Origin: Nostocales cyanobacterium LEGE 11386
GTDB taxonomy: Bacteria > Cyanobacteriota > Cyanobacteriia > Cyanobacteriales > Nostocaceae
Assembly (NCBI GenBank): GCA_015207155.1
Contig: JADEXK010000019.1
Coordinates: 18,438 to 50,437, forward strand
Direction of reading: 5' to 3'
DNA length: 32,000 nt
The notes under the pieces: model-generated
Database searches by the model: none
The model's input: the letters and a program-made list of their open reading frames with translations, nothing else
Told to the model about the DNA's origin: nothing
Position numbers and translations under genes: made by a program
Shown: piece after piece, positions 6,600 through 32,000 of the stretch
Position numbering within the stretch: position 1 is the first letter of the stretch
Layout: the number at the start of each line of letters is the position of its first letter

Positions 6600-7823
6600 T
6601 TATCGTTCTGCTGGTAAAGGTGCAGGACTAACTACTACTTGAGCAATTCGCCCATTACGTTCCACTTGTATTTGTAAAGGGTTACCGATTGTGCTGTTTT
6701 CTACAAGCTTTTGCACTTCTTCAATTTTGGTAACAGGTTGGTTATTAATGCTTTGAATTACATCACCAGGCCGTAGTCCAGCAACCGATGCTGGAGAGCG
6801 AGGCACGATACTCACCAATAAAACGCCTTGATCTGCTGTAAGATTAACGCGATCGCCTGCTCTAGTATTAATTCTTTCTTTCAGTTCTGGTGTCAACGTC
6901 ACCATTTGAATGCCCAAGTAAGGATGATCAACCCTACCTTTAGCAATTAATTCTTGGGAAATTCTTTGCACTGTATTAATGGGAATGGCAAATCCTAACC
7001 CTTGTGCGCCTCGGATAATTGCTGTGTTCATCCCAATTACTTCACCTCTGACATTGAGTAATGGCCCGCCAGAGTTACCAGGGTTAATCGCCGCATCCGT
7101 TTGAATATAGTCAACACGCTTGTCACTCACCCCAATATCACTACTAGAGCGACCAGTAGCGCTAATAATCCCCGAAGTAACTGTATTATTGAGTCCTAAA
7201 GGATTGCCAATGGCAATTACTGCTTCTCCCGGTTGCAAGACATCAGAATTACCTACAGGTAAGATTGGCAGATTATTGGCATCAATTTGAATTAAAGCCA
7301 CATCAGTAACCGGATCTTCACCCAGTACTCTGCCATCATAAGTCCTGCCATCCTTCAGGGTAACAGTTACAGAGTCAGCGCCATCGACCACATGGGAATT
7401 AGTTAAGATTTGACCTGAGGAGTTAATAATAAATCCAGAACCACTACCCTGCTCAACTCGCTCTCTAGGCTGTGATGGCTCTATATCGCCAAAAAACCGC
7501 CGGAAAAAACGATCTTCTGGTAAACGAGAAGTTACGGTTCTAGATGCATCAATCCGCACTACTGCATCTCCCACCTTTTGAACTACTGCGACCACAAAGT
7601 TAGGATCTCCAGATGCGGAAATAATTGCTGGGGGAGTAATTGCCGGACTGTTATTATTTGTATTTTGGGTTCCCACCTGAGGCTCATTGGTTTTGGCAGG
7701 TAGAAGCGAGCAGCCCCCCAGGGACACCACTGCTACCCCACTTACTAGCACCAACTTGATCATGTGGGGCCAACCCCAGGTATCAATATTGTGGACTCTC
7801 AAGTCATGCTCTTTTGTCTTCAT
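6600..7823 (-). CDS. HtrA/DegP-family periplasmic serine protease (trypsin-like domain plus PDZ)
   Basis: 407-aa ORF with the catalytic triad context TNSHVV, DVALIQ and GNSGGPLLN, and a C-terminal PDZ (GLRPGDVIQSINNQPV). The N-terminal hydrophobic segment ends in a lipobox-like LGGC. An alternative start at Met21 (nt 7763) is possible. Confidence 0.9.
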   Translation of the reverse strand: MKTKEHDLRVHNIDTWGWPHMIKLVLVSGVAVVSLGGCSLLPAKTNEPQVGTQNTNNNSPAITPPAIISASGDPNFVVAVVQKVGDAVVRIDASRTVTSRLPEDRFFRRFFGDIEPSQPRERVEQGSGSGFIINSSGQILTNSHVVDGADSVTVTLKDGRTYDGRVLGEDPVTDVALIQIDANNLPILPVGNSDVLQPGEAVIAIGNPLGLNNTVTSGIISATGRSSSDIGVSDKRVDYIQTDAAINPGNSGGPLLNVRGEVIGMNTAIIRGAQGLGFAIPINTVQRISQELIAKGRVDHPYLGIQMVTLTPELKERINTRAGDRVNLTADQGVLLVSIVPRSPASVAGLRPGDVIQSINNQPVTKIEEVQKLVENSTIGNPLQIQVERNGRIAQVVVSPAPLPAER

Positions 7824-7992
7824 GTGTCTTTACTTCTCCGTGCTAGTCAGTGGGTGGTAGAATCTTGCCTACCGGGTTTGTCCCAGAATGATGACAACTC
7901 TCAAGCTCATTTTCTGTCCATAACTTCTAAATATTAAATTAGTACGTGTTGATATCTTCTATTGTGATGATTAGCAGCCAAGGTGGTAAATA

Positions 7993-9375
7993 ATGGAAAT
8001 TCCCATTGACAGTCTGTGGAATCAGGTGTTAGAGCGCTTACAGCTAGAACTATCCCGTCCCACCTTTGAAACTTGGATCAAAACTGCTAATGCGGAGCGA
8101 TTAGAAAATAACTGCTTGATAATAATTACTCCTAACCCTTTTGCTCGTAATTGGTTACAAAAATATTACATCAACACGATCGCTCATGTAGTGCAAGACA
8201 TTTTGGGTCATCCTGTAGAAATCTATATTACTGTTGCTCAGGGTGATGGAATTACCCATTTGGGAGAACGAGATGCTGCTTGGGAGTTACCTAACCCAAG
8301 TATCATCGCTGAAACTGTGCCCCAAAAAAAGCAACCCACTACTGATTTAAACTCTAAATATGTATTTTCGCGATTTGTTGTTGGTGCTAACAATCGGATG
8401 GCTCACGCCGCATCCTTGGCTGTGGCGGAATCTCCAGGGCGGGAGTTTAATCCTTTATTTTTATGCGGTGGTGTCGGCTTGGGCAAAACCCATCTGATGC
8501 AAGCTATTGGTCATTATCGCCGGGAAATTTGCCCAGATTCCAAAATATTTTATGTGTCCACAGAGCAATTTACTAACGACTTAATTACAGCCATTCGCAA
8601 TGATAGTATGCAAAGTTTCCGGGAGCATTACCGAGCGGCTGATGTGTTGTTAGTAGATGATATTCAGTTTATTGAAGGTAAAGAATATACCCAAGAAGAA
8701 TTTTTTCATACTTTTAACACATTACATGAAGCTGGTAAGCAAGTAGTCATAGCTTCCGACCGTCCCCCTAATCAAATTCCTCGATTACAAGAACGTCTGT
8801 GTTCCCGGTTTTCTATGGGTTTAATTGCTGATGTGCAAACTCCAGATTTAGAAACTAGGATGGCAATTCTTCAGAAAAAAGCTGAGTACGAAAATATTCG
8901 CCTCCCCAGAGATGTAATTGAGTATATTGCTTCTAACTACACTTCTAATATTCGCGAGTTGGAAGGAGCCTTAATTCGGGCACTAGCTTATATTTCTATT
9001 TGGGGTTTACCAATGACAGTAGAAAATATCACACCAGTTTTAGAAACACAAAGCGAAAAAGTAGAAGCTACTCCAGAAACGATTTTAGCAGTTGTTGCTG
9101 ATACTTTTGATGTCTCAATTGAAGACCTGAAAAGTAACTCACGGCGGCGAGAAATTAGTTGGGCACGTCAAATAGGTATGTATTTAATGCGCCAACGGAC
9201 TGATCTGAGTTTACCGAGAATTGGTGAAGAGTTTGGTGGTAAAGATCATACAACGGTAATTTATAGTTGTGACAAAATTGCCCAACTCCAAGAAAGCGAT
9301 CGCACTTTAGCACAAACCCTCCGTCAATTGAGCGATCGCATCAATATGACTAGTCGTTCTCAAAAATCAACTTAA
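7993..9375 (+). CDS. dnaA: Chromosomal replication initiator protein DnaA
   Basis: 460-aa ORF with Walker [11 protein letters not shown], Walker B LLVDDIQF and a C-terminal DnaA-box-binding domain ([14 protein letters not shown]). A DnaA-box cluster and dnaN follow it. Confidence 0.97.
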
Positions 9376-9689: not shown

Positions 9690-10844
9690 ATGAAATTAGT
9701 TTGCGCCCAAAGCGATCTCAGTACAAATCTTTCACTCGTTAGCCGTGCAGTCCCGTCACGACCGACTCATCCGGTACTTGCCAATGTGCTGTTACAAGCA
9801 GATGCTCAAACTAACCAAGTTAGCTTAACTGCCTTTGATCTCAGCTTGGGTATCCGTACCAGCTTTCATGCTGAGGTATTAGAAGGAGGCGCGATCGCTC
9901 TGCCAGCTAAACTACTTTTAGATATCACCTCGCGGCTGCCAGAAGGCGAAGTCACTTTAGATGATGAATCAGCCGAAACATCCACCGGTGAAGGTCTCAT
10001 CGTTACCCTGACGCCAAAAAGTGGACATTATCAAGTCCGCGCCATGGAAGCTGAAGAGTTTCCCGAACTACCTATAATTGACAACACTGAACCCCTTAAT
10101 TTAACTACTACTGCCTTAATTGAAGGATTACGCGGTTCATTATTTGCTACCAGTGGTGATGAAACCAAGCAAGTACTAACGGGAGTACATTTAACAGTAA
10201 AACAAGACATCCTAGAATTTGCCGCTACCGACGGACATCGCCTCGCCGTAGTAGAAACCACTAACGAAAGCCCCCTTGGTGATCATGGTCAACTAGAAGT
10301 GACAGTCCCAGCTAGAGCCTTACGCGAACTACAACGAATGTTGGCTCATAATGCTGCCTCCGATGAAGCGATCGCTTTATATTTAGATCAAGGTCAAGTT
10401 GTGTTTGCCTGGCAAAATCAAAGATTGACGAGCCGCACCTTAGACGGGCAATATCCAGCTTATCGCCAACTCATTCCACGCCAATTTGAACGCCAAGTGA
10501 CAATTGAACGGCGACAATTTATCAGCACTTTGGAGCGAATAGCCGTGCTAGCTGACCAGAAAAATAATATTGTTAAAGTCAGTATTGACAGCGCTGCCCA
10601 GGAACTGACTTTATCGTGTGAAGCTCAAGATGTGGGTAGCGGTAGAGAATCTATACTTGCAAAAATATCTGGAGAAGATATAGAAATTGCTTTTAACATC
10701 AAGTATTTGATGGAAGGACTAAAAGAGTTACCATCTGCCGAAATTCAAATGAACCTCAATCAACCCCTGACTCCAGTGATTTTTACACCAGTGGGTGAAT
10801 TAAAAATGACTTATTTAGCTATGCCTGTACAACTCAGGAATTAG
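9690..10844 (+). CDS. dnaN: DNA polymerase III beta sliding clamp
   Basis: 384-aa ORF with a typical N-terminus (MKLVCAQSDLSTNLSLVSRAVPSRPTHPVLANVLL). It has the typical length and the typical position after dnaA. Confidence 0.97.
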   Translation: MKLVCAQSDLSTNLSLVSRAVPSRPTHPVLANVLLQADAQTNQVSLTAFDLSLGIRTSFHAEVLEGGAIALPAKLLLDITSRLPEGEVTLDDESAETSTGEGLIVTLTPKSGHYQVRAMEAEEFPELPIIDNTEPLNLTTTALIEGLRGSLFATSGDETKQVLTGVHLTVKQDILEFAATDGHRLAVVETTNESPLGDHGQLEVTVPARALRELQRMLAHNAASDEAIALYLDQGQVVFAWQNQRLTSRTLDGQYPAYRQLIPRQFERQVTIERRQFISTLERIAVLADQKNNIVKVSIDSAAQELTLSCEAQDVGSGRESILAKISGEDIEIAFNIKYLMEGLKELPSAEIQMNLNQPLTPVIFTPVGELKMTYLAMPVQLRN

Positions 10845-20368: not shown

Positions 20369-20505
20369 AGAGTGCTGAGTTGAAAGTGCTGAGTGCTGAG
20401 TTAAGAAACCGCCCGCACTTCGGCAAGGCTCGGCGACCACCAGGGGCGGGGCATTTACCGAGTGCGAAAGTGTTTCCTTCCTCTTGTTATTACTCAGCAC
20501 TCAGT
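20369..20505. repeat. Structured repeat element bounded by inverted TGCTGAG/CTCAGCA heptamer runs
   Basis: The left arm is GAGTGCTGAGTTGAAAGTGCTGAGTGCTGAG (20370-20400). The right arm is ACTCAGCACTCAG (20492-20504). The interior has nested inverted repeats, CCGCCC...GGGCGG and GCACTTCGG...CCGAGTGC. Confidence 0.6.
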
Positions 20506-21693: not shown

Positions 21694-22374
21694 ATGAGCC
21701 AGACTGCGTTAAATTTAGTTGCAATCTCTATATTTCTCATGACTTTATCGGTGCTGCTGGGGCCATTAATTCATTTGTCCCCGACAGTACCAGCAATTGC
21801 TACTTTCACTATTTTGGGAATAGCTACTTTCGATAATTTCAGCTTGCAAGGCAAGGGCGGTGCTATTTTTGTAGATTGGATTGCTGGTTTTTCTCCTGAA
21901 CACCGCGATCGCATTATCCACCATGAAGCCGGACACTTTCTCGTTGCACACTTGCTGGATATTCCTGTGACTGGCTATACTCTCAGTGCTTGGGAAGCTT
22001 GGAAACAGGGGCAACCAGGACAAGGTGGTGTTACCTTTGATGATGCTGAATTAGCATCTCAACTAGAAAGAGGAACAATCAGCGCCCAAATTCTAGACCG
22101 CTATTGCACAATTTGGATGGCGGGTATTGTTGCCGAAACTCTTGTTTTTAATCGTGCTGAAGGTGGGGCTGATGATCAAAGCAAGCTTGCAGGAGTTCTA
22201 GCAAGTTTGGGCTTTTCAAAATCAGCTTGTCAGCAAAAACAACGGTTTCATATTCTCCAAGCAAAAACTCTACTGCAAGAAAATTGGTCTAGTTACGAAG
22301 CTTTAGTCCAATCGATGCAACAACGCGCCTCTGTTGCAGATTGTCAAGGTGTTATTAGTCAGTCTGCTTCTTAA
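21694..22374 (+). CDS. Membrane protein with a HEXXH zinc-metalloprotease motif (FtsH peptidase-domain-like)
   Basis: 226-aa ORF with two N-terminal hydrophobic helices and then IIHHEAGHFLVAH (HEXXH). Confidence 0.75.
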   Translation: MSQTALNLVAISIFLMTLSVLLGPLIHLSPTVPAIATFTILGIATFDNFSLQGKGGAIFVDWIAGFSPEHRDRIIHHEAGHFLVAHLLDIPVTGYTLSAWEAWKQGQPGQGGVTFDDAELASQLERGTISAQILDRYCTIWMAGIVAETLVFNRAEGGADDQSKLAGVLASLGFSKSACQQKQRFHILQAKTLLQENWSSYEALVQSMQQRASVADCQGVISQSAS

Positions 22375-22398: not shown

Positions 22399-22509
22399 CA
22401 CTCAGCACTCAGCACTCAGCACTTAGAAAAACACTCAGCACTCAGCACTCAGCACTCAGCACTCAGCACTCAGCACTTAGAAAAGCACTCAGCACTTAGA
22501 AAAGCACTC
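22399..22509. repeat. Heptameric tandem repeat array (STRR-like), unit CTCAGCA
   Basis: The array is (CTCAGCA)x3, CTTAGAAAAACA, (CTCAGCA)x6, CTTAGAAAAGCA, CTCAGCA, CTTAGAAAAGCACTC. It fills the gap between the convergent genes ending at 22374 and 22511. Confidence 0.9.
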
Positions 22510-22510
22510 T

Positions 22511-23536
22511 TTAAGATGAAACTGCTCTAAGATGCGAAACTGAAGGGAAATAGTCACGCCCAACAGATCGATTACGTCCAGTAGCTTTAGCCTGTAACAA
22601 GTATTGGTCAGCACGATGGAGTAAGTTAAAGCCATTATCATCATCTTGTTCTTGCAGACACGCAGCACCTAAGCTAATCGTGATGTTAATAGTTAGTTTA
22701 CTGTTGATTGTAAACGGTTCCTCGCTGACTACACGGTTGAGACGCTCTGCCACTAGCAAGGCTTCCTCGCCATTGGTGTTAGCTAAAATCACCACAAATT
22801 CCTCTCCACCATAACGGAATGGAGTATCTTGAAACCGCAGATTATGCCGCAGACGGCTACATAGTAATTGCAAGAGGCGATCGCCAACTAAATGACCGTA
22901 GGTATCGTTAACTTGCTTGAAATAATCTACATCTAAAATAATTAAACTCAAGGCAGTTCCTTGAGTCCGTGCTTTTTTAATTTGTCTGGGTAATTCCCAT
23001 TCCAAAGCCCGGCGATTATTCATATCTGTCAACGAATCAGCTAAGGCGATCGCTGATAATACATCATTTGTCCGCAGTAAATCGCGGTATTTTTGTGCTT
23101 TTCGTATCCCGACTGTCAATTGGGCTAGTAATAGACCGTGATTTGCCATCATGCTTGTAAAACTTCGGTCTGTTTTTGCCTCAGGAAGCTGCCAAATATA
23201 AGCGTCAGATCCTTGCCTGAGTGCATTGGCAGTCATTTCTAATTCCCACTCCCAGCCATGCTGATTTCTCGCTGCTAGCTGTTGGGGACGATCTTCCAAA
23301 AGAATACAGTATATCCAGGATAGCTGGGTCTGGTCTTTGAGCCAACGACACAGTTCCATACTGCCATCCAAACTAGCCTGCACAAGTATTACATCTGGCG
23401 GTGTAATTTGCATGTGCGACACTGCCTGATTGACATCCATGATAACTTCTATACTAAAAGCGGTTGCGTCAAGGATCTGATCGGGAAGTGTGGCGAGAAA
23501 GTTCTTACTTCCAAAGACCAGAATAGAAATTTTCAT
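22511..23536 (-). CDS. Diguanylate cyclase with an N-terminal pseudo-receiver domain
   Basis: 341-aa ORF. The GGDEF domain has an active-site GGEEF and an RxxD I-site at canonical spacing (RFQDTPFRYGGEEF). In the N-terminal REC-like fold the phospho-acceptor position reads Q (PDVILVQASLDG) and the acidic pair is missing (ILVFGSKNF). Confidence 0.9.
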   Translation of the reverse strand: MKISILVFGSKNFLATLPDQILDATAFSIEVIMDVNQAVSHMQITPPDVILVQASLDGSMELCRWLKDQTQLSWIYCILLEDRPQQLAARNQHGWEWELEMTANALRQGSDAYIWQLPEAKTDRSFTSMMANHGLLLAQLTVGIRKAQKYRDLLRTNDVLSAIALADSLTDMNNRRALEWELPRQIKKARTQGTALSLIILDVDYFKQVNDTYGHLVGDRLLQLLCSRLRHNLRFQDTPFRYGGEEFVVILANTNGEEALLVAERLNRVVSEEPFTINSKLTINITISLGAACLQEQDDDNGFNLLHRADQYLLQAKATGRNRSVGRDYFPSVSHLRAVSS

Positions 23537-24215
23537 TGCTGTGCTTTCTGCCCTATTTCAAGCTAAAACTTGCTGCTTTTTCCGAGTATTAAATATATCG
23601 GTATTTCTGACACAGGGTTATTACCCTATATTTGATATTATCAGCGCTAAATATATCACTGTCTGCAAATTTTAATCTCCTCTTAATACCTAGGTTTTAT
23701 TAAACTTGAGTAACTTAAAGTTCTCATAATTACTGTCTGCCTTTTCATATTTTTTTTAAAACAGTAAAAATACGGAATATTTTTCCTGCTCTTAAAAGTC
23801 TTACTGTGATTTACAGATATGAGTTATTTTCGAGCATTGCCTAAGCAGAATATTTGTATTTACATGAACTTTAAAAAGGCAAAACTTTTACTTCTGTATA
23901 ATGTTGAAAAAAATATAAAATTTTATTTTTATCCGTAAAAACCGAGGTGTCTAATGAATATAAAAAATGTTATATACCTTACATAGCAGAGCATTTTTCC
24001 TTGGGGGAAGATGCTTTTTCGGTATTTAGCAGTAGCATCAGGCAGTTTAAGCAAGTGTTAGGCAATTAGACCTGCATCTGACTGTGGTAGCTTTTGGTTA
24101 TGTATTTAATTAGCTCTATATTTTTAAATGTTTCATAAACTAACTGATGAAAATGCATAAATAATCAATATGAACTTGATTGAAATTTACTATAAAATAG
24201 TTCAATAATTTACAA

Positions 24216-24238
24216 TTCCGCCCATTGAATGGGCGGAA
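24216..24238 (-). terminator. Perfect 10-bp hairpin downstream of the metallochaperone gene
   Basis: TTCCGCCCAT (24216-24225), loop TGA, ATGGGCGGAA (24229-24238). On the minus strand it is followed by TTGTAAATTATTG. Confidence 0.55.
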
Positions 24239-24308
24239 ATATCAAAATTAAATTGTTTTGATATAGCTAGTTCTATATCTAACTAATTTTGCAGAAATCA
24301 GGCTATAA

Positions 24309-24509
24309 TCAATAGCCTTCTATTTTGTACCCAGCAGCAACAATTACCTGTTTGATAGATTCCTCAGAAGCCGAAGATTCCACAGTAACTGTTTTATCTG
24401 GAACATCCACATCCACCAGCGCATGAGGTTCCATGACATGGATAGATTCAGTAATTTTTGCTGCACAATCTTCACAGGCCATATCTGGAACTTTTAATTT
24501 TAGTGCCAT
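24309..24509 (-). CDS. Heavy-metal-associated (HMA) domain metallochaperone, Atx1/CopZ-like
   Basis: 66-aa ORF with the metal-binding loop PDMACEDCAAKI (MxCxxC). Size and ferredoxin-like pattern resemble cyanobacterial Atx1. Confidence 0.85.
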   Translation of the reverse strand: MALKLKVPDMACEDCAAKITESIHVMEPHALVDVDVPDKTVTVESSASEESIKQVIVAAGYKIEGY

Positions 24510-24837
24510 TACTTACCTCAGTATATGAGTTTTATTTTTGCAAATTATTCCCATATTATTGATGCAGAGTGCGATCGCACATCTTACTAGAGTGAGGTAA
24601 TTGGGGAATTCACAGATAGAGAATTACACAATCACTGCATATAACTGCCTACGGGCAAAAAATGCTGGCAGCAAACTGAAACAAAATGCAAAAATATAGA
24701 TATAAAGCTACTTATGGAAATACACCTAGTAGATAACTGTCCCAGCAGCAACTCACTTACGGCATACTTTGTCTGTAAAAGAGACAAACTATCTTCTGCG
24801 GACGTTCCCTAATTTATTAATCCTACTTTTTCCACCC

Positions 24838-27480
24838 ATGCCTGATAATCCCCAGAAACTTAGCGGTAACGAAATTCGCAACTCATTCCTTAACTTCTTT
24901 GCCCAGCGAGGACACCAAATTCTCCCCAGTGCTTCCGTTGTGTCAGAAGACCCGACCTTGTTGCTGACGGTCGCGGGGATGGTACCATTTAAGCCGATAT
25001 TCCTGGGACAGCGCACACCAGAATTCAATCGGGCTACCACTTCTCAAAAGTGCATCCGTACCAACGACATCGAAAACGTGGGACGCACCAAACGCCATCA
25101 CACGTTTTTTGAGATGTTGGGTAATTTTAGCTTTGGTGATTATTTTAAAGAACAAGCGATCGCTTGGGGTTGGGAAATCTCCACCAAAGTCTTCGGCTTA
25201 TCTCCAGAACGTCTGGTAGTCAGCGTCTTTGAAGAAGATGATGAAGCTTATAATATTTGGCGCGATCAAATTGGCGTACCAGCAGCCAGAATTAAGCGCA
25301 TGGGTGCAGATGATAACTTTTGGACAATGGCTGCTACTGGGCCTTGTGGCCCTTGTTCGGAAATTTATTATGACTTCTACCCGGAACGCGGTGATGAAAA
25401 TATCGATTTAGAAGACGATACCCGATTTATCGAATTTTATAACCTCGTCTTCATGCAATATAACCGGGATGCATCAGGTAATTTAACACCTCTGCAAAAT
25501 AAGAATATCGATACTGGCATGGGTTTGGAACGGATGGCGCAAATCCTCCAACAAGTATCGAATAACTATGAAACTGATTTAATTTTCCCGATTATCCAGA
25601 CAACAGCCCAAATTGCGGGGATTGATTACCACAGCAGCGATGAGAAAACTAAAGTCTCACTGAAAGTTATTGGTGATCATGTGCGTTCCGTTGTCCACAT
25701 GATTGCCGATGAAATTCGCGCCTCCAATGTGGGGCGGGGTTATGTGTTGCGGCGCTTAATTCGGCGGGTAGTGCGTCATGGGCGATTAATTGGCATTGCT
25801 GGCGAATTTATTAACCAAGTTGCCGAAACTGCGATCGCGCTTTCTGAATCAGCTTACCCCAATGTGCGCCAACGAGAAGCAGCTATTAAAGCTGAACTGC
25901 AACGAGAAGAAACCAACTTCCTGAAAACTCTAGATAGGGGTGAGAAACTTTTAGCAGAAGTCATCCAAGAGGTAAAACAGCAAAATCAAACCCAAATTAG
26001 CGGTGAAAGTGCCTTTACTTTATACGATACCTTCGGTTTCCCGTTAGAACTCACCCAAGAAATCGCGGAAGAAAATCACCTCACAGTTGATGAAGCGGGA
26101 TTTGATGCCGAAATGCAAAAACAGGTGGAACGTGCCAAAGCCGCCCACGAAACCATCGATTTAACTGTACAAGGTTCCCTCGACAAGTTAGCCGAACACA
26201 TCCACGCCACCGAATTCTTAGGTTATACCCAAGCTGCGGCGACAGCAAACGTTGAAGCCATATTAATAGATGGCATTGCCCAAGAAGCAGCAGAAGCCGG
26301 GACAGAAGTGCAAATTGTCCTGAATCAAACCCCATTTTATGCAGAATCTGGGGGACAAATAGGCGATCACGGTTATATCTCCGGTGATGGTGTGTTGGTG
26401 CGCGTGGAAGATGTGAAAAGAGAATCTGATTTCTTTGTCCACTTTGGACGCATCGAACGCGGTACAATCCGAGTAGGAGATGCTGTGACTGCTCAAATAG
26501 ATCGGGCTTGTCGTCGTCGCGCTCAAGCTAATCATACTGCAACGCATCTATTACAAGCAGCGTTAAAGAAAATTGTCGATGATGGTATATCTCAAGCCGG
26601 TTCCCTGGTTTCCTTTGATAGATTGCGCTTTGACTTCAACTGTCCCCGTGCATTGACACCAGAAGAAGTCCAGCAAGTTGAGGAACAGGTGAATACTTGG
26701 ATTGCCGAAGCCCATACGGCGAACGTAGAAGTATTACCTTTAGCAGAAGCCAAGGCTAGAGGTGCAGTTGCCATGTTCGGAGAAAAATACGGCGAAGAAG
26801 TCCGCGTGATTGACTTTCCTAGCGTATCAATGGAACTGTGCGGTGGAACTCATGTCAATAATACTGCGGAGATTGGCATATTTAAAATTATCTCTGAAGC
26901 TGGTGTAGCGTCTGGGGTACGACGCATTGAGGCTGTGTCTGGCCCAGCAATCTTGGATTATCTCAATGTTCGGGATAAGGTAGTCAAAGATTTAAGCGAT
27001 CGCTTTAAAGTTAAACCCGAAGAATTACCAGAGAGAATTACCACGCTGCAAACTGAACTGAGAAATAGTGAGAAAGAATTAGCCAGTTTGAAATCACAAT
27101 TGGCGATCGCTAAATCTGACAGCTTGCTGCAAACAGTAGAATCTGTAGGCGATTATCAAATTTTGGTAGCGCAAATGGAAGATGTTGACCCGGAATCTTT
27201 GAAAACTGCTGCTGAAAGGTTACTGCAAAAAATCGGTAACGGTGCAGTGGTTCTGGGTTCGGTTCCAGAAGAGGGGAAGGTAAGTATAGTTGCAGCCTTC
27301 AGTACAGAGGTGAATAAAAAGGGACTGCAAGCCGGTAAATTTGTCGGTGCTATTGCGAAGATTTGCGGCGGTGGCGGCGGTGGTAGACCGAATTTAGCCC
27401 AAGCCGGCGGACGTGATGCGAGTAAGTTACCGGAGGCGTTAGCCAAGGCGCAGAGTGATTTGCGATCGGCCTTGAGTTAA
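24838..27480 (+). CDS. alaS: Alanine--tRNA ligase
   Basis: The class II core reads HTFFEMLGNFSFGDYFK, the editing-domain HxxxH is HTATHLL, and the C-terminal DHHA1-type tail is GGGGGGRPNLAQAGG. The track ORF starts at TTG 24769. ATG 24838 (MPDNPQKLSGNEIRNSFLNFF) gives the canonical ~880-aa protein. Confidence 0.97.
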   Translation: MPDNPQKLSGNEIRNSFLNFFAQRGHQILPSASVVSEDPTLLLTVAGMVPFKPIFLGQRTPEFNRATTSQKCIRTNDIENVGRTKRHHTFFEMLGNFSFGDYFKEQAIAWGWEISTKVFGLSPERLVVSVFEEDDEAYNIWRDQIGVPAARIKRMGADDNFWTMAATGPCGPCSEIYYDFYPERGDENIDLEDDTRFIEFYNLVFMQYNRDASGNLTPLQNKNIDTGMGLERMAQILQQVSNNYETDLIFPIIQTTAQIAGIDYHSSDEKTKVSLKVIGDHVRSVVHMIADEIRASNVGRGYVLRRLIRRVVRHGRLIGIAGEFINQVAETAIALSESAYPNVRQREAAIKAELQREETNFLKTLDRGEKLLAEVIQEVKQQNQTQISGESAFTLYDTFGFPLELTQEIAEENHLTVDEAGFDAEMQKQVERAKAAHETIDLTVQGSLDKLAEHIHATEFLGYTQAAATANVEAILIDGIAQEAAEAGTEVQIVLNQTPFYAESGGQIGDHGYISGDGVLVRVEDVKRESDFFVHFGRIERGTIRVGDAVTAQIDRACRRRAQANHTATHLLQAALKKIVDDGISQAGSLVSFDRLRFDFNCPRALTPEEVQQVEEQVNTWIAEAHTANVEVLPLAEAKARGAVAMFGEKYGEEVRVIDFPSVSMELCGGTHVNNTAEIGIFKIISEAGVASGVRRIEAVSGPAILDYLNVRDKVVKDLSDRFKVKPEELPERITTLQTELRNSEKELASLKSQLAIAKSDSLLQTVESVGDYQILVAQMEDVDPESLKTAAERLLQKIGNGAVVLGSVPEEGKVSIVAAFSTEVNKKGLQAGKFVGAIAKICGGGGGGRPNLAQAGGRDASKLPEALAKAQSDLRSALS

Positions 27481-27496
27481 TTGTCTTCTCTTGTAG

Positions 27497-27520
27497 GGCG
27501 GGCATCTTGCCTGCCTTAAT
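27497..27520 (+). terminator. Possible alaS terminator hairpin
   Basis: GGCGGGCA (27497-27504), loop TCT, TGCCTGCC (27508-27515, one G-T pair), then the A/T-rich TTAATCATAAATT. It forms part of a dispersed repeat half-site. Confidence 0.4.
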
Positions 27521-27546
27521 CATAAATTCAGTTACACAATACTTTT

Positions 27547-27882
27547 ATGACTATCAAAAAACTCCTTTTCCAAGAAATTGAATCCTCCCCAGACTCTCTT
27601 CTAGAAGAAACTCTAGACTTTTTGCGCTTTCTCAAAACTAAGCAAGAAGCAGACAAAAAAGATACACCTGCCTCACCAGTTAAATTAGAAGATACCCAGA
27701 GACTACCAGAATCTCAGTCAGTAGACAATTCTCAATTACCTTACCGTCCAGCTTCCGGGCGTTCAATTCTGAGACACGCTGGAACCTGGGAAGGCGATGA
27801 CTTTCAAGAGTGTCTTCAGTTGGTTTACGCCACGCGTGGTAAAGCCAAATTTGATTATGACTTGAATCCTTTTGATTCATGA
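27547..27882 (+). CDS. Type II antitoxin-like protein (DUF2281-like N-terminus), partner of the downstream PIN fragment
   Basis: 111-aa ORF with N-terminus LLFQEIESSPDSLLEETLDFLRFLKTKQ and C-terminus GRSILRHAGTWEGDDFQECLQ, as in cyanobacterial VapB-type antitoxins. Its stop overlaps the next start in ATGA (27879-27882). Confidence 0.65.
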   Translation: MTIKKLLFQEIESSPDSLLEETLDFLRFLKTKQEADKKDTPASPVKLEDTQRLPESQSVDNSQLPYRPASGRSILRHAGTWEGDDFQECLQLVYATRGKAKFDYDLNPFDS

Positions 27883-28145
27883 ATCTATTAGATACAAACC
27901 ACTGTAGCGCCATCATCCTCGGCGAACCAAACGTCATCCGTCGAATAGCTGAGGTAGGAGAATTAAATATTGCTACCTGCGTAATTGTGCAGGGAAAACT
28001 TACATATATGATGGAAAATTCTGCCAAGAGAGAAACTAATCTCGCTCGGTTGAAAGATTTTCTCGCAAATATAGGTATCTACAGCGTTACAGAGGACAGC
28101 CAAAGACCAAACAGAAGTATCAACAATAACGCTCATGTCTGCTGA
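27879..28145 (+). pseudogene. Truncated VapC (PIN-domain) toxin
   Basis: The 88-aa ORF starts with the PIN N-terminal motif MNLLDTNHCSAII...ATCVIVQGKLTYMMENSAKRETNLARLKDFL. PIN-like sequence ends at about residue 74 (nt ~28100). After that the sequence is unrelated (QRPNRSINNNAHVC), and the C-terminal acidic residues of a ~130-aa PIN domain are absent. Confidence 0.6.
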
Positions 28146-28351
28146 CGTTGCTGCTTGTAGTCATAGTCTGCATCATAATCGATAGTACCAAAGAGTTCTA
28201 ACACTTTAAGCCGCTTACGACGTTGAATATATTCGCGTAGTGCTGTTTCCACCAGAGAATCAATGGACGCGTGGTCTTTAAGTGCCAATGCTTCTTGTAG
28301 TAGGGCTTCGTTTATGTTGAGTGGTGTAGCCACAATCAATTTTGATTCCAC
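28133..28351 (-). CDS. Orphan VapB-family (DUF2191-like, RHH) antitoxin
   Basis: 72-aa ORF, LNINEALLQEALALKDHASIDSLVETALREYIQRRKRLKVLELFGTIDYD. The cognate toxin gene expected downstream on the minus strand (below 28133) is absent. That space is occupied by the truncated plus-strand PIN fragment. Confidence 0.65.
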   Translation of the reverse strand: MESKLIVATPLNINEALLQEALALKDHASIDSLVETALREYIQRRKRLKVLELFGTIDYDADYDYKQQRQQT

Positions 28352-28378
28352 AACTGACTAAATCGATAGTAACGCATT

Positions 28379-28531
28379 CTGTATCTGGCCCGGCGATATT
28401 GGATTATCTCAATGTTCGCGATAAAGTAGTCAAGGATTTAAGCGATCGCTTTAAAGTTAAACCCGAAGAATTACCAGAGAGAATCACCACTCTGCAAACT
28501 GAACTGAGAAATAGTGAGAAACAATTAGCAA
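28379..28531 (+). pseudogene. Relic fragment of a second alaS allele, equivalent to alaS nt 26933-27085
   Basis: The alignment is collinear with a constant offset of 1446 nt and no indels, with 11 mismatches in 153 nt. It encodes VSGPAILDYLNVRDKVVKDLSDRFKVKPEELPERITTLQTELRNSEK, identical to AlaRS. A further 7-nt match (ACGCATT, 28372-28378 = 26922-26928) lies across a 4-nt gap. Homology ends abruptly at ~28531. Confidence 0.92.
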
Positions 28532-28771
28532 CATTCACGCGCTACCGCTATTCCCTGATTTTACCAGTAGTCATTGACACCAATATTTTTGTCTCACGCA
28601 AAGGCGCAAAGACGCAAAGAAAGACATATTATCAGCAATAGTATAGTTTAATTTAAATACATGAAAGTTGCTGTAAAAGCGAAAACCAAAATTCATAGCT
28701 ATAATTTATACCGTTTGAAAATTCTACTGTGATAGACTAGTCAAGCATAATCCCTGACTGATACTTGCTAA

Positions 28772-30376
28772 ATGGTGTACGTCTATTCAAATTTCGACCA
28801 GAAAAACCTCAAATGGTTTCCCAACGATACCACCCGTGCAACCCTGCTCACAATCAAAGTCTTACGAGGTCAAATACGTGGTCTTAAGGGAGTTACTATT
28901 GACTTTCATTATCCAATAACAGCCATTGCTGGACGGAATGGTTCTTGTAAAACTACAGTTCTCGCTTTATCAGCCTGTGCCTTTCACAACAAGTCTAATA
29001 GCTTCAAGTTACCTGGAAGAAAACATCCTTATTATACTTTTTCAGATTTCTTTATCCAGACAAAAGAGGAATCACAACTTGGTGATATAGCAATTCACTA
29101 TCAAATTCTTCACAACAACTGGAGAATTACGAAGCATAATGCGAATAAGGCTGGTTCAAGTTGGCAGCTACGCCGGAAGAAGGCTGGAAGTCGATGGAAT
29201 AACTATGATTCAAGAGTTATACGCACCGTTGTATTTCTTGGTGTTGAGCGTATTGTTCCACATGCAGAAAGAAGTGTATCTAAGAGCTATAAAGGTCGGT
29301 TTCAGCCAGCAACAGATCACGGATGGGAAGATAGTGTTCGTGTAACTGTAGGAAAAATTCTTGGTACTAACTATACAAGTTTTAGCTATAGTCGATATGC
29401 AAGATATCGTTTGCCTATTGTGGCTAAGAACGATTTGAAGGTCTATTCGGGCTTCAATATGGGAGCAGGTGAACACTCTTTATTTGAGTTATTCTCAATC
29501 ATCCATGAATGCCCAGATGGTTCACTTATTTTGATTGACGAGATAGAATTGGGTCTTCATGAGAAGGCACAAGAAAAATTAATTGAAGAATTAAAGAAAA
29601 TATGTGAAAAACGTAAATTCCAAATTATTTGTACAACTCATTCTTCTCGAATTATTGAATCATTACCACCAGAAGGCAGAATTTTTATTGAACGCATTGG
29701 TGATCAGACTACTATCATACCAGAAATTTCGCCAGCCTATGCAACTGGAAAACTTTCTGGTCGTCTAAATGTTGAGTTAGATATTGTAGTAGAAGATGAG
29801 GCAGCTCAATTAATAGTAGAAACAGTTTTAGATAATGAGCTACGCTCACGTACAAAAGTTTTACCTATTGGTTCAGCAACAGCAGTTATGCGATATCTTA
29901 GTGCAAAATATAAAGAATATACGTACAAACAAGATGGAACTATAGAACTTTGTGTAATTCTTGACGGTGATCAAGCACCGAAAAAATCTGAGCATATTAG
30001 GCAATTCTTAAACAGTCTGGAAAAACTTAATGATACGGAAAAAGAAAAGGCTAAAGATTGGGTAGAAAAACGCCTGACATTTCTACCGGGAAATGATTGG
30101 CCTGAATTATGGATTATTACGCCAAACAATAAAGAAGCATTTTACGAAAGATTTCAGAGAGAATTCCAAATATCGAATGCAGCAGTCGATGAAATGTTAG
30201 ATTCAGCATCTAGGGCTGGTAAGCATAATGAATTCAATGAAGTAGCAAAAATATTAAATTATGATGATAAAGTTGTAGCCAGTCATCTCATTAAGAGTGC
30301 TTTTGAATCAGAACCAGAAGAATCAAAAAGAATTATTAATTTCATGCGGGGTTTTCTGGGAGAGAAAAAAATATAG
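28772..30376 (+). CDS. SMC/ABC-type ATPase fused to a TOPRIM-like C-terminal module; OLD-family/GajA/PARIS(AriAB)/AbiL-like candidate defence nuclease
   Basis: 534-aa ORF. Walker A is AGRNGSCKT (nt 28931-28954). There is a signature-like YSGFNMGAGEHSLFEL, a Walker B/D-loop LILIDEIELGLHE (nt ~29525-29560) and an H-loop ICTTHSS. The C-terminal part has ELDIVVEDEAAQLIVE (acidic beta-strand, E341) and CVILDGDQ (DxD, nt 29963-29971), as in Toprim domains. The gene contains no HIP1 site. The CDS call is confident, but the function is inferred. Confidence 0.8.
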   Translation: MVYVYSNFDQKNLKWFPNDTTRATLLTIKVLRGQIRGLKGVTIDFHYPITAIAGRNGSCKTTVLALSACAFHNKSNSFKLPGRKHPYYTFSDFFIQTKEESQLGDIAIHYQILHNNWRITKHNANKAGSSWQLRRKKAGSRWNNYDSRVIRTVVFLGVERIVPHAERSVSKSYKGRFQPATDHGWEDSVRVTVGKILGTNYTSFSYSRYARYRLPIVAKNDLKVYSGFNMGAGEHSLFELFSIIHECPDGSLILIDEIELGLHEKAQEKLIEELKKICEKRKFQIICTTHSSRIIESLPPEGRIFIERIGDQTTIIPEISPAYATGKLSGRLNVELDIVVEDEAAQLIVETVLDNELRSRTKVLPIGSATAVMRYLSAKYKEYTYKQDGTIELCVILDGDQAPKKSEHIRQFLNSLEKLNDTEKEKAKDWVEKRLTFLPGNDWPELWIITPNNKEAFYERFQREFQISNAAVDEMLDSASRAGKHNEFNEVAKILNYDDKVVASHLIKSAFESEPEESKRIINFMRGFLGEKKI

Positions 30377-30430
30377 TTTTTTGGGCTTGTATGGAATAAA
30401 TCAAATTTAGGCAGGCGATCGCAACTCAAA

Positions 30431-31036
30431 TTATCGAGGAAGAATATCATCTAGGCGAAGTTGAAGACGAGGCAAAAGCGGTGAATTAATCAATTGATTT
30501 AATCGATATTGTTGTTGAGTATAAGTATCTTCAACCAGTTGGCAAATAGTAAAAGTTGGTTGTTTTGGTTTACCAATAAAAGCTACACCACCCAATCCTC
30601 GATAATCGACAATCCAATATTCAGGAATGCCTAAAAGTGCATACTCTTCAACTTTGCGAGCATAGTCAGTTTCCCAATTTGTACTCACAACTTCAACCAC
30701 CAATTTAATTGAGCGTCCCAAAGTAACTATGGGTTCTCGTTCCCAGAGGGGTTCACGAGCAAGAACTGTTTCATCTAGAACCACAACATCAGGACGACGA
30801 ATTGTCGCTGCATCTGCAAAGGGATAAATTAAACAAGTGCGAGGAATAAACCAAGGAAGTTTTTCTGCAACAAGGTTTATACCTATTTGGGTTGCAATTT
30901 TACCACTCACCGTTTCGTGGAGGCCAGTGGGTTCCATGTCAATTAGTTCTCCGTCTGCTAATTCATAGCGGGGATTATCTTGATATTGAGAAAGAAAATC
31001 TTCTTTAGTGAGGTTTTTTTGGGAGATATAGGCCAT
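30431..31036 (-). CDS. Uma2-family (DUF820) putative endonuclease
   Basis: The sequence reads YELADGELIDMEPTGLHETVSG...RRPDVVVLD...KLVVEVVSTNWETDYARKVEEYALLGIPEYWIVDYRG, a PD-(D/E)XK-like Uma2 pattern. The track ORF extends to 31165, but ATG 31036 (MAYISQKNL...) gives the usual ~200 aa. The extension runs through HIP1-containing repeat sequence. Confidence 0.85.
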   Translation of the reverse strand: MAYISQKNLTKEDFLSQYQDNPRYELADGELIDMEPTGLHETVSGKIATQIGINLVAEKLPWFIPRTCLIYPFADAATIRRPDVVVLDETVLAREPLWEREPIVTLGRSIKLVVEVVSTNWETDYARKVEEYALLGIPEYWIVDYRGLGGVAFIGKPKQPTFTICQLVEDTYTQQQYRLNQLINSPLLPRLQLRLDDILPR

Positions 31037-31361
31037 TGACTCAATCTCCGGTAATTTATATGTTCTTATCTTAAAGTATCTAACCACACCATAGCAAAAA
31101 CGATCGCACAACCTCAACTCTCGTAAAGCGCGATGGCGCTTTGCGCCCGCCGGAGGCGATCGCATTATTTCTATATACTTGTTTTAGGAAAACAGAGTAC
31201 GTGTATCTACAAGCTACTTCAGCTTTTTCAACACTTCTTTTTAACTAGGCGACGGCGAGTAACAAATATTCTAGCTACTAGATCAATATCTACAAGCTAG
31301 TTAGCTCGGATACATTTTGTGATCAAAAATCCAATATTTTAGCCAAACTTTGATAGTGCGA

Positions 31362-31736
31362 TTAAAACAGCCGAAAAATGAACGGATAACGGAACGGTTG
31401 ATCAGAATTAGTCAGACAATGCCACAGCGCCCAAATTGTCAGTCCCCAGTGTAGTGCAAAGCCCAAAGCCACAAGGGGGAAGAATAAAATTCCACCAATG
31501 CCAAATGTGAGCCAAGACAGAATCCCGATGGGAACCCCGATTATAGTTGCCCAAAACCAAACATTGAAGTGAAAATTAATCGATTCTTTGGCGTTGCTTT
31601 TCACAACTGGGTCGTCGGAAATTAAGTTAATTACAATCGGCACCCCAATTGAGAACAATGTTGTACTAAAGAAAATTGCCCCGTGACACAGAGATGATAG
31701 CAATTTACGCTGATTAGAATCGTATCCAACTTGCAT
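31362..31736 (-). CDS. Small integral membrane protein, DUF4870-like
   Basis: 124-aa ORF with 3-4 hydrophobic helices and an inter-helix KSNAKESINFHFNVWFW segment typical of the family as I recall it. Confidence 0.65.
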   Translation of the reverse strand: MQVGYDSNQRKLLSSLCHGAIFFSTTLFSIGVPIVINLISDDPVVKSNAKESINFHFNVWFWATIIGVPIGILSWLTFGIGGILFFPLVALGFALHWGLTIWALWHCLTNSDQPFRYPFIFRLF

Positions 31737-32000
31737 CCTGGTGGCTCCTAAACTCGGTTGATAATTCCGATTTTAACGAACATTTAATAGGTTTAATATT
31801 GTAGTTTACCGTACTCAGGAAGGTTTCCGGACTCTTGCTTGAGATAAATTAACTTTGACTATTATTCATCAACTAAATTATGAGGTTTACCGAACACCTA
31901 CATGATTTGTGAATGTACTTATTGCTTTAACACTATTGTAGAGGGCGATGTCTTCAAACAGATCGCCGATTTCCGAGTTCGTCACGCGATCGCTGCTATC

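Follow-up and report, generated by a model that had tools for sequence, protein, structure and literature searches.

The 32,000-nt stretch of Nostocales cyanobacterium LEGE 11386 analyzed here (contig JADEXK010000019.1; the whole stretch is referred to as the window, and coordinates are window positions unless a locus is named) contains an intact alanyl-tRNA synthetase gene, alaS, followed downstream by an undecayed fragment of a second functional alaS allele. This relic most likely has no function of its own and represents a recombination scar. It is probably a dead alaS fragment left by a homology-anchored insertion-duplication, either of the Campbell type or of the kind known as homology-facilitated illegitimate recombination (HFIR), with subsequent deletions. 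Comparable fragments recur downstream of alaS in other genomes, where they bracket small toxin-antitoxin (TA) and other cassettes. This kind of recurrent cassette slot next to alaS, free of recombinases, appears to be undescribed; a search of the literature on alaS as an integration site found nothing specific.

The relic as a fragment of a functional alaS allele

The relic (positions 28379 to 28531) aligns with positions 26933 to 27085 of alaS in 153 gap-free columns, 11 of which are mismatches, exactly as claimed in a preliminary description made from the sequence alone. This pair is the only long direct repeat that a repeat search detects in this part of the window. In the alaS frame, the 50 complete codons differ by 10 synonymous changes and a single replacement (GAA/CAA, E/Q), again in agreement with that description; the 11 substitutions comprise 6 transitions and 5 transversions. 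Nei-Gojobori estimates of synonymous and nonsynonymous divergence (dS and dN) between the working copy and the relic are 0.38 and 0.009, respectively, with a dN/dS ratio (omega) of 0.023. The synonymous excess is significant, with P = 2.7e-6 if both copies are taken as neutral; under a more lenient null, with a constrained working copy and a neutral relic, P is still 3e-4. In 20,000 simulations of 11 random mutations that kept the observed share of transitions, 10 synonymous changes were never reached.

At all 11 differing sites, the base found in the relic is a common state among functional alaS genes (139 distinct sequences), relative to which the relic has no private mutations. The working copy carries the rarer state at several of these sites; G at position 26979, for example, is found in only 15 of the 139 sequences. 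Because every relic-specific base is common in functional alaS, the relic is an undecayed piece of a functional allele, and the earlier claim that two functional alleles are involved is borne out by these bases as well as by the codon test.

The translated relic matches residues 699 to 751 of AlaS with 92% identity, and its DNA is 86 to 95% identical to the alaS genes of relatives. This match excludes an AlaX-type or other alaS paralog, which had been named as a possible source, and the open reading frame (ORF) spanning the relic has no Pfam match of any kind, AlaX or tRNA_SAD included. The template/variable pair of a diversity-generating retroelement was also considered and rejected: the substitutions are of all kinds, and no reverse transcriptase was found in the window. 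As to which copy is native, the relic is 90.9% and the working copy 91.4% identical to L004 (L-numbers are labels of the compared loci), and the distances of the two copies to L001 are likewise about equal. The identity between the window and L004 falls from ~96-98% to 88-93% near position 26938, which is within the mosaic fluctuation along the whole of alaS.

A relic is also present in Cyanocohniella sp. LLY (L001). It differs from the window relic at 9 sites, 8 synonymous and 1 replacement (dS 0.29); over the same codons, the dS between the working alaS genes of the two genomes is 0.33. The four copies, two working and two relic, are roughly equidistant, with 8 to 12 differences. For pseudogenes diverging since one insertion, about three replacement changes per synonymous change are expected. 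The relics behave like samples of functional alleles, not like pseudogenes that have been decaying since a single insertion. The relics have therefore been re-sampled from functional alleles, perhaps whenever the cassette block was transferred, through crossovers or repair patches, or perhaps through later exchange with alaS DNA.

The shared vapBC-relic junction

The left junction of the relic, with a vapBC cassette, is identical in the window, in L001, and in two syntenic metagenome contigs, L084 and L085, and the relics that follow it differ in length. L001 has the order alaS, intact DUF2281-PIN, a second antitoxin gene together with a truncated PIN_3 gene, vapC-vapB (intact), and the alaS fragment, which is at least 178-189 nt long, ~25 nt longer than that of the window, and diverges 16 nt before the contig end. 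In L084/L085, the relic is reduced to ~24 decayed nt with a stop codon. L084 additionally keeps a scrap matching alaS codons ~822-829, with a Uma2 gene then downstream. Because of this retained scrap, the original relic must have been long, probably extending to the stop codon, and was trimmed differently in each lineage. Such lineage-specific trimming (153 nt in the window, against the lengths just given for L001 and L084) rules out a conserved functional element, an outcome that the preliminary description had weighed against its own reading.

Calothrix sp. NIES-3974 (L083) carries the vapBC cassette at a site distant from alaS, and the match of this copy to the window ends at position 28382; therefore, the relic junction coincides with the end of the vapBC cassette. 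The bases CTGT are common to the cassette and to alaS (GGCTGT|GTCTGG), and such a microhomology is typical of an illegitimate joint, not of an attachment core. The 153-nt alignment stands, but the originally drawn edges need correcting, because both are shared with neighboring sequence. On the left, CTGT (28379 to 28382) also belongs to the vapBC cassette, and unambiguous alaS starts at 28383. On the right, the last bases (GCAACA, ~28527-28533) overlap the spacer that follows the first PIN gene in L001 (spacer X), to which the relic is joined via a microhomology of 6 to 8 nt. The metagenome contigs, scanned for exact copies of the vapBC-relic junction, gave no match.

Recurrence at other alaS loci

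The survey covered ~155 alaS loci, consisting of 80 loci from species-representative genomes and of metagenome contigs. A 3' fragment of alaS is found downstream of an intact alaS in 6 of the 80 species-representative loci, and the metagenome contigs add L105 and L150. The 10 relic-bearing loci, window included, are listed in Table 1; the fragments are all in direct orientation. The bracketed segments are 0.3 to 2.8 kb long, and their cargo includes DUF2281-PIN, a PIN_3 pair, vapBC, hicAB, brnTA, an ATPase gene, and unknown ORFs. The left ends of the fragments fall at AlaS residues 520, 699, 721, 769, 792, 808, 835, and 836, a spread of 316 codons. The right ends are found where the downstream homology ends: at the stop codon in L031 (+0), 9 nt past it in L049, 12 nt past it in L105, and ~61 nt past it in L073, where the duplicated segment takes in the hairpin and ~60 nt.

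A protein search with the AlaS C terminus gave mostly partial genes at contig edges. Two further candidates from this search were rejected as artefacts, L081 because of a scaffold gap and L082 because of a frameshift-ridden assembly. A search of plasmids found TA homologs and no plasmid with a piece of alaS.

In Nostoc desertorum (L049) and Nostoc sp. FACHB-892 (L031), the working alaS matches the local Nostoc type only as far as a conserved block that lies ~45 nt upstream of the stop codon; beyond that block, it has the tail and the hairpin typical of the clade of the window. The fragment downstream has retained the tail and flanking DNA of the local type, identical to those of L026/L040-type genomes. 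With a foreign tail on the working copy and a native tail on the fragment, a foreign segment (tail, hairpin, and cassettes) has been recombined in, displacing the native end. The part of the preliminary description according to which foreign DNA entered with its own copy of the alaS 3' end is thus upheld by these tails. The differences between the copies are synonymous-biased here as well (12:2 and 29:11 in the bodies of L049 and L031, respectively). The idea that the alaS 3' end travels with the first cassette was rejected: alaS identity to L049 is no higher at the 3' end than elsewhere, the final 45 nt excepted.

L105 has a repeat of 1,084 nt with 99.8% identity, which ends 12 nt past the stop codon and brackets a 2.8-kb insert. 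This insert is the block that normally follows alaS in five other genomes, with its last ORF cut by the junction, and the junction has a short (roughly 5-10 nt), imperfect microhomology. Judging from this arrangement, L105 looks like a recent import of the alaS-downstream region of another strain type, anchored in alaS. A block of three genes (371, 128, and 268 aa) without Pfam or PADLOC matches lies directly downstream of alaS in several Nostocales, at positions 3240-5539 of L105, ~10760-13100 of L003, L058, L060, and L078, and 1204-3494 of L115.

Proposed origin of the scar

In the scenario that we favor, the incoming DNA would have come from a related cyanobacterium and carried the 3' part of alaS followed by TA cassettes. 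It would have recombined into the resident alaS, on one side by ordinary homologous recombination within the gene and on the other by an illegitimate joint at the 4-nt microhomology CTGT near alaS codon 700. By an equivalent route, the fragment might have circularized at the CTGT joint and then integrated by a single crossover. Either route would yield a complete hybrid working alaS, the cassettes, and the displaced alaS 3' part as a direct repeat; later microhomology-mediated deletions would have left 153 nt of the relic and destroyed most toxin genes. The two copies would differ almost only synonymously because both are made of pieces of functional alleles. The alaS gene is presumably essential, and the imported copy would always complete it because only complete-gene products survive. 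Addiction modules might help such unstable direct-repeat structures persist. The order seen in the window (relic, spacer X, and a scrap of a PIN_3 gene, the last two of which precede vapBC in L001) points to insertion in two nested rounds and to a minimum of four later deletions.

Both HFIR and the circularization and single crossover of incoming linear DNA have been shown experimentally (PMC3240628), and transformation can create duplications through pairing with two sister chromosomes (PMC3784515). Sequence features of this type of event are present at alaS, where the junctions are microhomologies (CTGT, GCAACA, and the L105 junction) and the duplications end where the homology ends. As in HFIR or in circle formation with a single crossover, one end is homology-anchored and the other is a microhomology (window, L105, and L049). 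The HFIR papers describe laboratory work in other bacteria, whereas at alaS we infer the process, including the recombination route and the order of events, from the scars alone. The usual outcome of classical HFIR is insertion with deletion, not duplication.

Several points weigh against this scenario. No excised circle, donor molecule, or transfer route has been seen. The window and L001 relics share their junction but differ from 15 nt inside the relic; a single simple crossover fits poorly, and mismatch-repair patches, repeated allele exchange, or several transfers would be needed. The order of cassettes differs as well, with spacer X after the relic in the window and before vapBC in L001, a difference that would require a nested double insertion. 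An integrase may have acted in trans from elsewhere in the genome. Finally, a special role of alaS is unproven, as the survey was confined to alaS loci.

A bolder extension of the insertion-duplication scenario, which we put forward only tentatively, is that cassettes shuttle between Nostocales genomes without an integrase, with the alaS 3' end as their homology handle. The working 3' end and the relic would recombine and release a circle consisting of one alaS 3' segment and the TA or defence cassettes, and this circle, or equivalent linear DNA, could re-enter any related genome when RecA recombines it into alaS. Pieces of the element and host alleles would be swapped in every cycle, so that the relic would keep the look of a functional allele. 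The TA genes would penalize loss, and the arrays would grow by insertion beside alaS and shrink by deletion. If such a shuttle exists, the ends of conserved genes might be a general, overlooked route of cassette mobility in cyanobacteria.

Alternative explanations

One of the two readings offered in the preliminary description was that the relic is the trace of a decayed integrase-borne island. On this interpretation, a site-specific integrative element (a phage, an integrative and conjugative element [ICE], or an island) carried the alaS 3' end in its attP and later lost its integrase and most of its DNA, much like a cis-mobilizable element (CIME). It would account for the direct repeats of the 3' part of the gene that bracket foreign DNA, for the imported copy that completes the gene, and for the synonymous differences, and the architecture is the same as that of icd, prophage e14, and icdC (PMC13626634). 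We nevertheless regard such an element as unlikely. The window has no integrase or transposase domain among its larger ORFs, as had been claimed, and no recombinase was found among the listed and scanned ORFs of the bracketed segments at any of the 10 relic-bearing loci. Comparison with relatives did locate the point where the DNA resumes, as the sequence from position 28674 onward begins ~70 nt after the alaS stop codon in L070 (Komarekiella) and L024 (Brasilonema), but no intact, recombinase-bearing version was present among the ~155 alaS loci. The repeat boundaries are not fixed: the left ends are scattered along the gene, and the right ends mark the end of the homology between donor and recipient. 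The junctions are microhomologies with no attachment core, that of the window being the vapBC cassette end at a 4-nt microhomology, and the L105 insert consists merely of the neighbor genes of another strain type, cut within an ORF.

Retention of the relic for some function, with selection explaining the synonymous pattern, is very unlikely. The candidates would be a small protein (the 99-aa ORF at 28342-28641 spans the relic), a promoter region of vapBC (the relic abuts the 5' side of vapB), or an RNA antisense to alaS, and the synonymous bias of the differences between the relics of the two genomes would be in line with selection. However, the relic is cut at three points in three genomes and is decayed in L084, other relics contain stop codons and deletions (L073, L072, and L150), and the ORF ends in unrelated scraps. 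No promoter-like site was found within the relic, and there are no Rfam families in the region from 23500 to 32000. The variants of the relic are all present in working alaS genes, which fits exchange and not selection in place.

An in-situ tandem duplication of the alaS 3' region with neutral decay, or an assembly artefact, might be suspected from direct repeats merely 1.4 kb apart but is the least credible explanation: neutral decay predicts a dN/dS ratio near 1 and mostly replacements, in conflict with the 10:1 synonymous excess (significant even with one copy constrained) and the lack of private mutations in the relic, the intervening DNA consists of foreign cassettes known elsewhere and on plasmids, and the same junction is found in three independent assemblies, with isolate genomes among the relic-bearing loci.

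Comparison with known systems

In Escherichia coli, prophage e14 (and phage 21) brings a new 3' end to icd, with icdC as the displaced fragment; most of the divergence between the two ends is conservative or synonymous, and chimeric genes arise when they recombine (PMC13626634). The alaS loci likewise have the displaced native 3' end downstream in direct orientation and the synonymous signature, and as a displaced gene end comparable to the icd/icdC scar, the relic is nothing unusual in itself. The difference is that the 15-kb prophage e14 has a fixed attachment site and encodes its own site-specific integrase, whereas the alaS inserts span 0.3 to 2.8 kb, are recombinase-free, and have varied boundaries and microhomology junctions.

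CIMEs, such as those related to ICESt at fda of Streptococcus thermophilus, are small integrase-less segments flanked on both sides by copies of a conserved gene's 3' end, and 3' fragments of tRNA genes likewise lie at island borders. The att sites that CIMEs retain are short and exact and belong to the cognate ICE integrase, in contrast to alaS, where neither an att-like core nor a cognate ICE was found. The minimal mobile elements of Neisseria are small cassettes that are swapped beside a conserved gene by homologous recombination of the flanks. As in the alaS slot, different small cassettes fill the same place beside a conserved gene in different strains. However, minimal mobile elements are exchanged by clean double-crossover replacement with no partial duplicate of the flanking gene, whereas the alaS slot leaves such a duplicate.

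Implications

Small TA and candidate defence cassettes can enter and accumulate beside a presumably essential, highly conserved gene without a dedicated recombinase, leaving a partial duplicate of the gene as their sole trace. The two copies both begin as functional alleles, which makes the relics datable, allele-level records of horizontal exchange. On the practical side, alaS fragments can mislead gene calling and annotation and break assemblies; the L001 contig ends 16 nt past the point where its relic diverges.

Genomic context

Features of the window and the relic-bearing loci are listed in Table 1.

Table 1. Features around alaS in the window and alaS relics at the 10 loci
Feature or locus	Window positions or AlaS residues	Strand	Cargo	Evidence or state
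alaS, intact, 880 aa	24838..27480	+		ORF/translation; full-length tblastn self-match; 85-96% identity to Nostocales AlaS
Repeat copy 1, inside alaS	26933..27085	+		codons ~699-750, helical linker preceding C-terminal DHHA1 domain
G+C-rich hairpin after alaS stop, terminator-like (GGCGGGCA tct TGCCTGCC)	27497..27515	+		sequence reading
DUF2281-family antitoxin gene, cassette 1	27547..27882	+		Pfam PF10047, 6.7e-7
PIN toxin gene, cassette 1, cut after ~73 codons	27879..28098	+		weak PIN match
vapC (PIN) toxin gene, first ~13 codons, remainder deleted	28098..28136	-		ORF begins MSVIVDTSVWSLA
vapB antitoxin gene, cassette 3, apparently intact	28133..28351	-		Pfam PF09957, 5.8e-10
vapBC cassette, upstream end; final 4 nt CTGT, junction microhomology	28352..28382			L083 match stops at 28382
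Relic, 3' part of second alaS allele, right-truncated	28379..28531	+		codons ~699-750; left junction identical in L001, L084/L085
Spacer fragment X, 42 nt	28525..28566	+		95% match to L001 7099-7140, after cassette-1 PIN gene there
Scrap of PIN_3 toxin gene start (VVIDTNI), cassette 2	28566..28588	+		23-nt match to L049 11664-11686
Small dispersed repeat (CTCACGCA ... GGCGCAAAGACGCAAAG)	28590..28624			same motif in five other loci
Resumed DNA, directly after alaS in cassette-free relatives	28674..30376	+		holds AAA_21 ATPase gene
AAA_21 / SMC-like ATPase gene	28772..30376	+		Pfam AAA_21; PADLOC candidate defence family HEC-04, 1.4e-50, nearly full length
Relic, window	residues 699-751		DUF2281-PIN + vapBC debris	153 nt, no private mutation
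Relic, L001 Cyanocohniella sp. LLY	residues 699-758		DUF2281-PIN, antitoxin + cut PIN_3, vapBC
Relic, L084/L085 metagenome contigs	~699-706 + ~822-829 scrap		230-aa ORF, antitoxin gene, vapBC	decayed, stop codon
Relic, L049 Nostoc desertorum	residues 721-879		DUF2281 antitoxin + PIN_3 pair	frame open
Relic, L031 Nostoc sp. FACHB-892	residues 769-879		PIN_3 pair	frame open across called 105-aa ORF
Relic, L073 Desmonostoc vinosum	residues 835-880		hicAB	stop codon, 6-nt deletion; repeat includes hairpin + ~60 nt
Relic, L072 Nostoc sp. CMAA1605	residues 836-879		93-aa ORF	decayed
Relic, L024 Brasilonema sp. UFV-L1	residues 792-817		ATPase gene	short scrap
Relic, L105 metagenome contig	residue 520 to end		2.8-kb block, three unknown ORFs	99.8% identical to working copy
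Relic, L150 metagenome contig	residues 808-867		brnTA	decayed

The hairpin that follows alaS was missed by a simple terminator scan. It is also found in many relatives, and its loop holds an extra insert in L001, L004, L031, and L049. Its interpretation as an integron-like attC site was rejected, the hairpin being ordinary after alaS in many cassette-free genomes.

The DUF2281 gene is 91 to 95% identical at the nucleotide level to those of L001 and L049, where it occupies the same position after alaS, and homologs of this DUF2281-PIN cassette occur on Nostocales plasmids. The intact counterpart of its PIN gene encodes 147 aa (L001 6630-7073). At window position 28098, homology leaps from position 6849 to position 7890 of L001, and this deletion junction has only a few shared bases. 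The intact VapC of L001 (136 aa, 7518-7928) begins with the same MSVIVDTSVWSLA as the truncated vapC of the window. VapB has 487 homologs, mostly cyanobacterial, and its family is widespread in cyanobacteria at 80 to 90% identity. The plasmid relatives of DUF2281-PIN and the wide VapB family are as expected of mobile cargo. A 72-aa VapB homolog of Calothrix sp. NIES-3974 (P0139; L083 8001-8219), which is not located beside alaS, is labelled "alanyl-tRNA synthetase" in the public record. This label probably reflects a mistaken annotation, possibly carried over from a locus in which vapB adjoins an alaS relic.

The sequence of L049 that matches the PIN_3 scrap lies within an intact 148-aa PIN_3 gene. 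The dispersed repeat that the preliminary description noticed beside the relic is real. Other copies are located at L084 9758-9771 (also in L085), L072 11194-11207, L039 10208-10221, and L047 77-90; the ends of the repeat are conserved and its inner part is variable. It resembles the very small mobile repeats described in Nostocales. A similar small insert is found within the loop of the post-alaS hairpin in L001, L004, L031, and L049.

The ATPase gene of the window immediately follows alaS in L070 and L024. In L024, it also precedes the alaS scrap (residues 792-817) and may have arrived by the same process. Farther downstream, the window encodes a Uma2-family endonuclease-like protein (30431-31165) and a DUF4870 membrane protein (31362-31736). 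A Uma2 or DUF4870 gene follows alaS at varying distances in L081, L084, L150, and L075, so that the contents of the post-alaS slot are variable.

Other parts of the window contain several features of separate interest. The dnaA and dnaN genes are adjacent (7993-9375 and 9690-10844), ~15 kb upstream of alaS, and because of this adjacency, the window may be near the replication origin. Tandem heptamers CACTCAG/CACTTAG at 22399-22518 lie between an ORF (21694-22374) and the 3' end of a minus-strand GGDEF gene (stop codon at 22511), with an inverted partial copy 2 kb away (20370-20401). Two pairs of dispersed repeats ~14.7 kb apart are found at 6261-6359/20918-21016 (99 nt, 93% identity) and 6038-6091/20816-20869 (54 nt, 87% identity). 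The 99-nt repeat contains a G+C-rich hairpin (CCCCTCTCCG...CGGAGAGGGG), and both repeats look like miniature inverted-repeat transposable elements.

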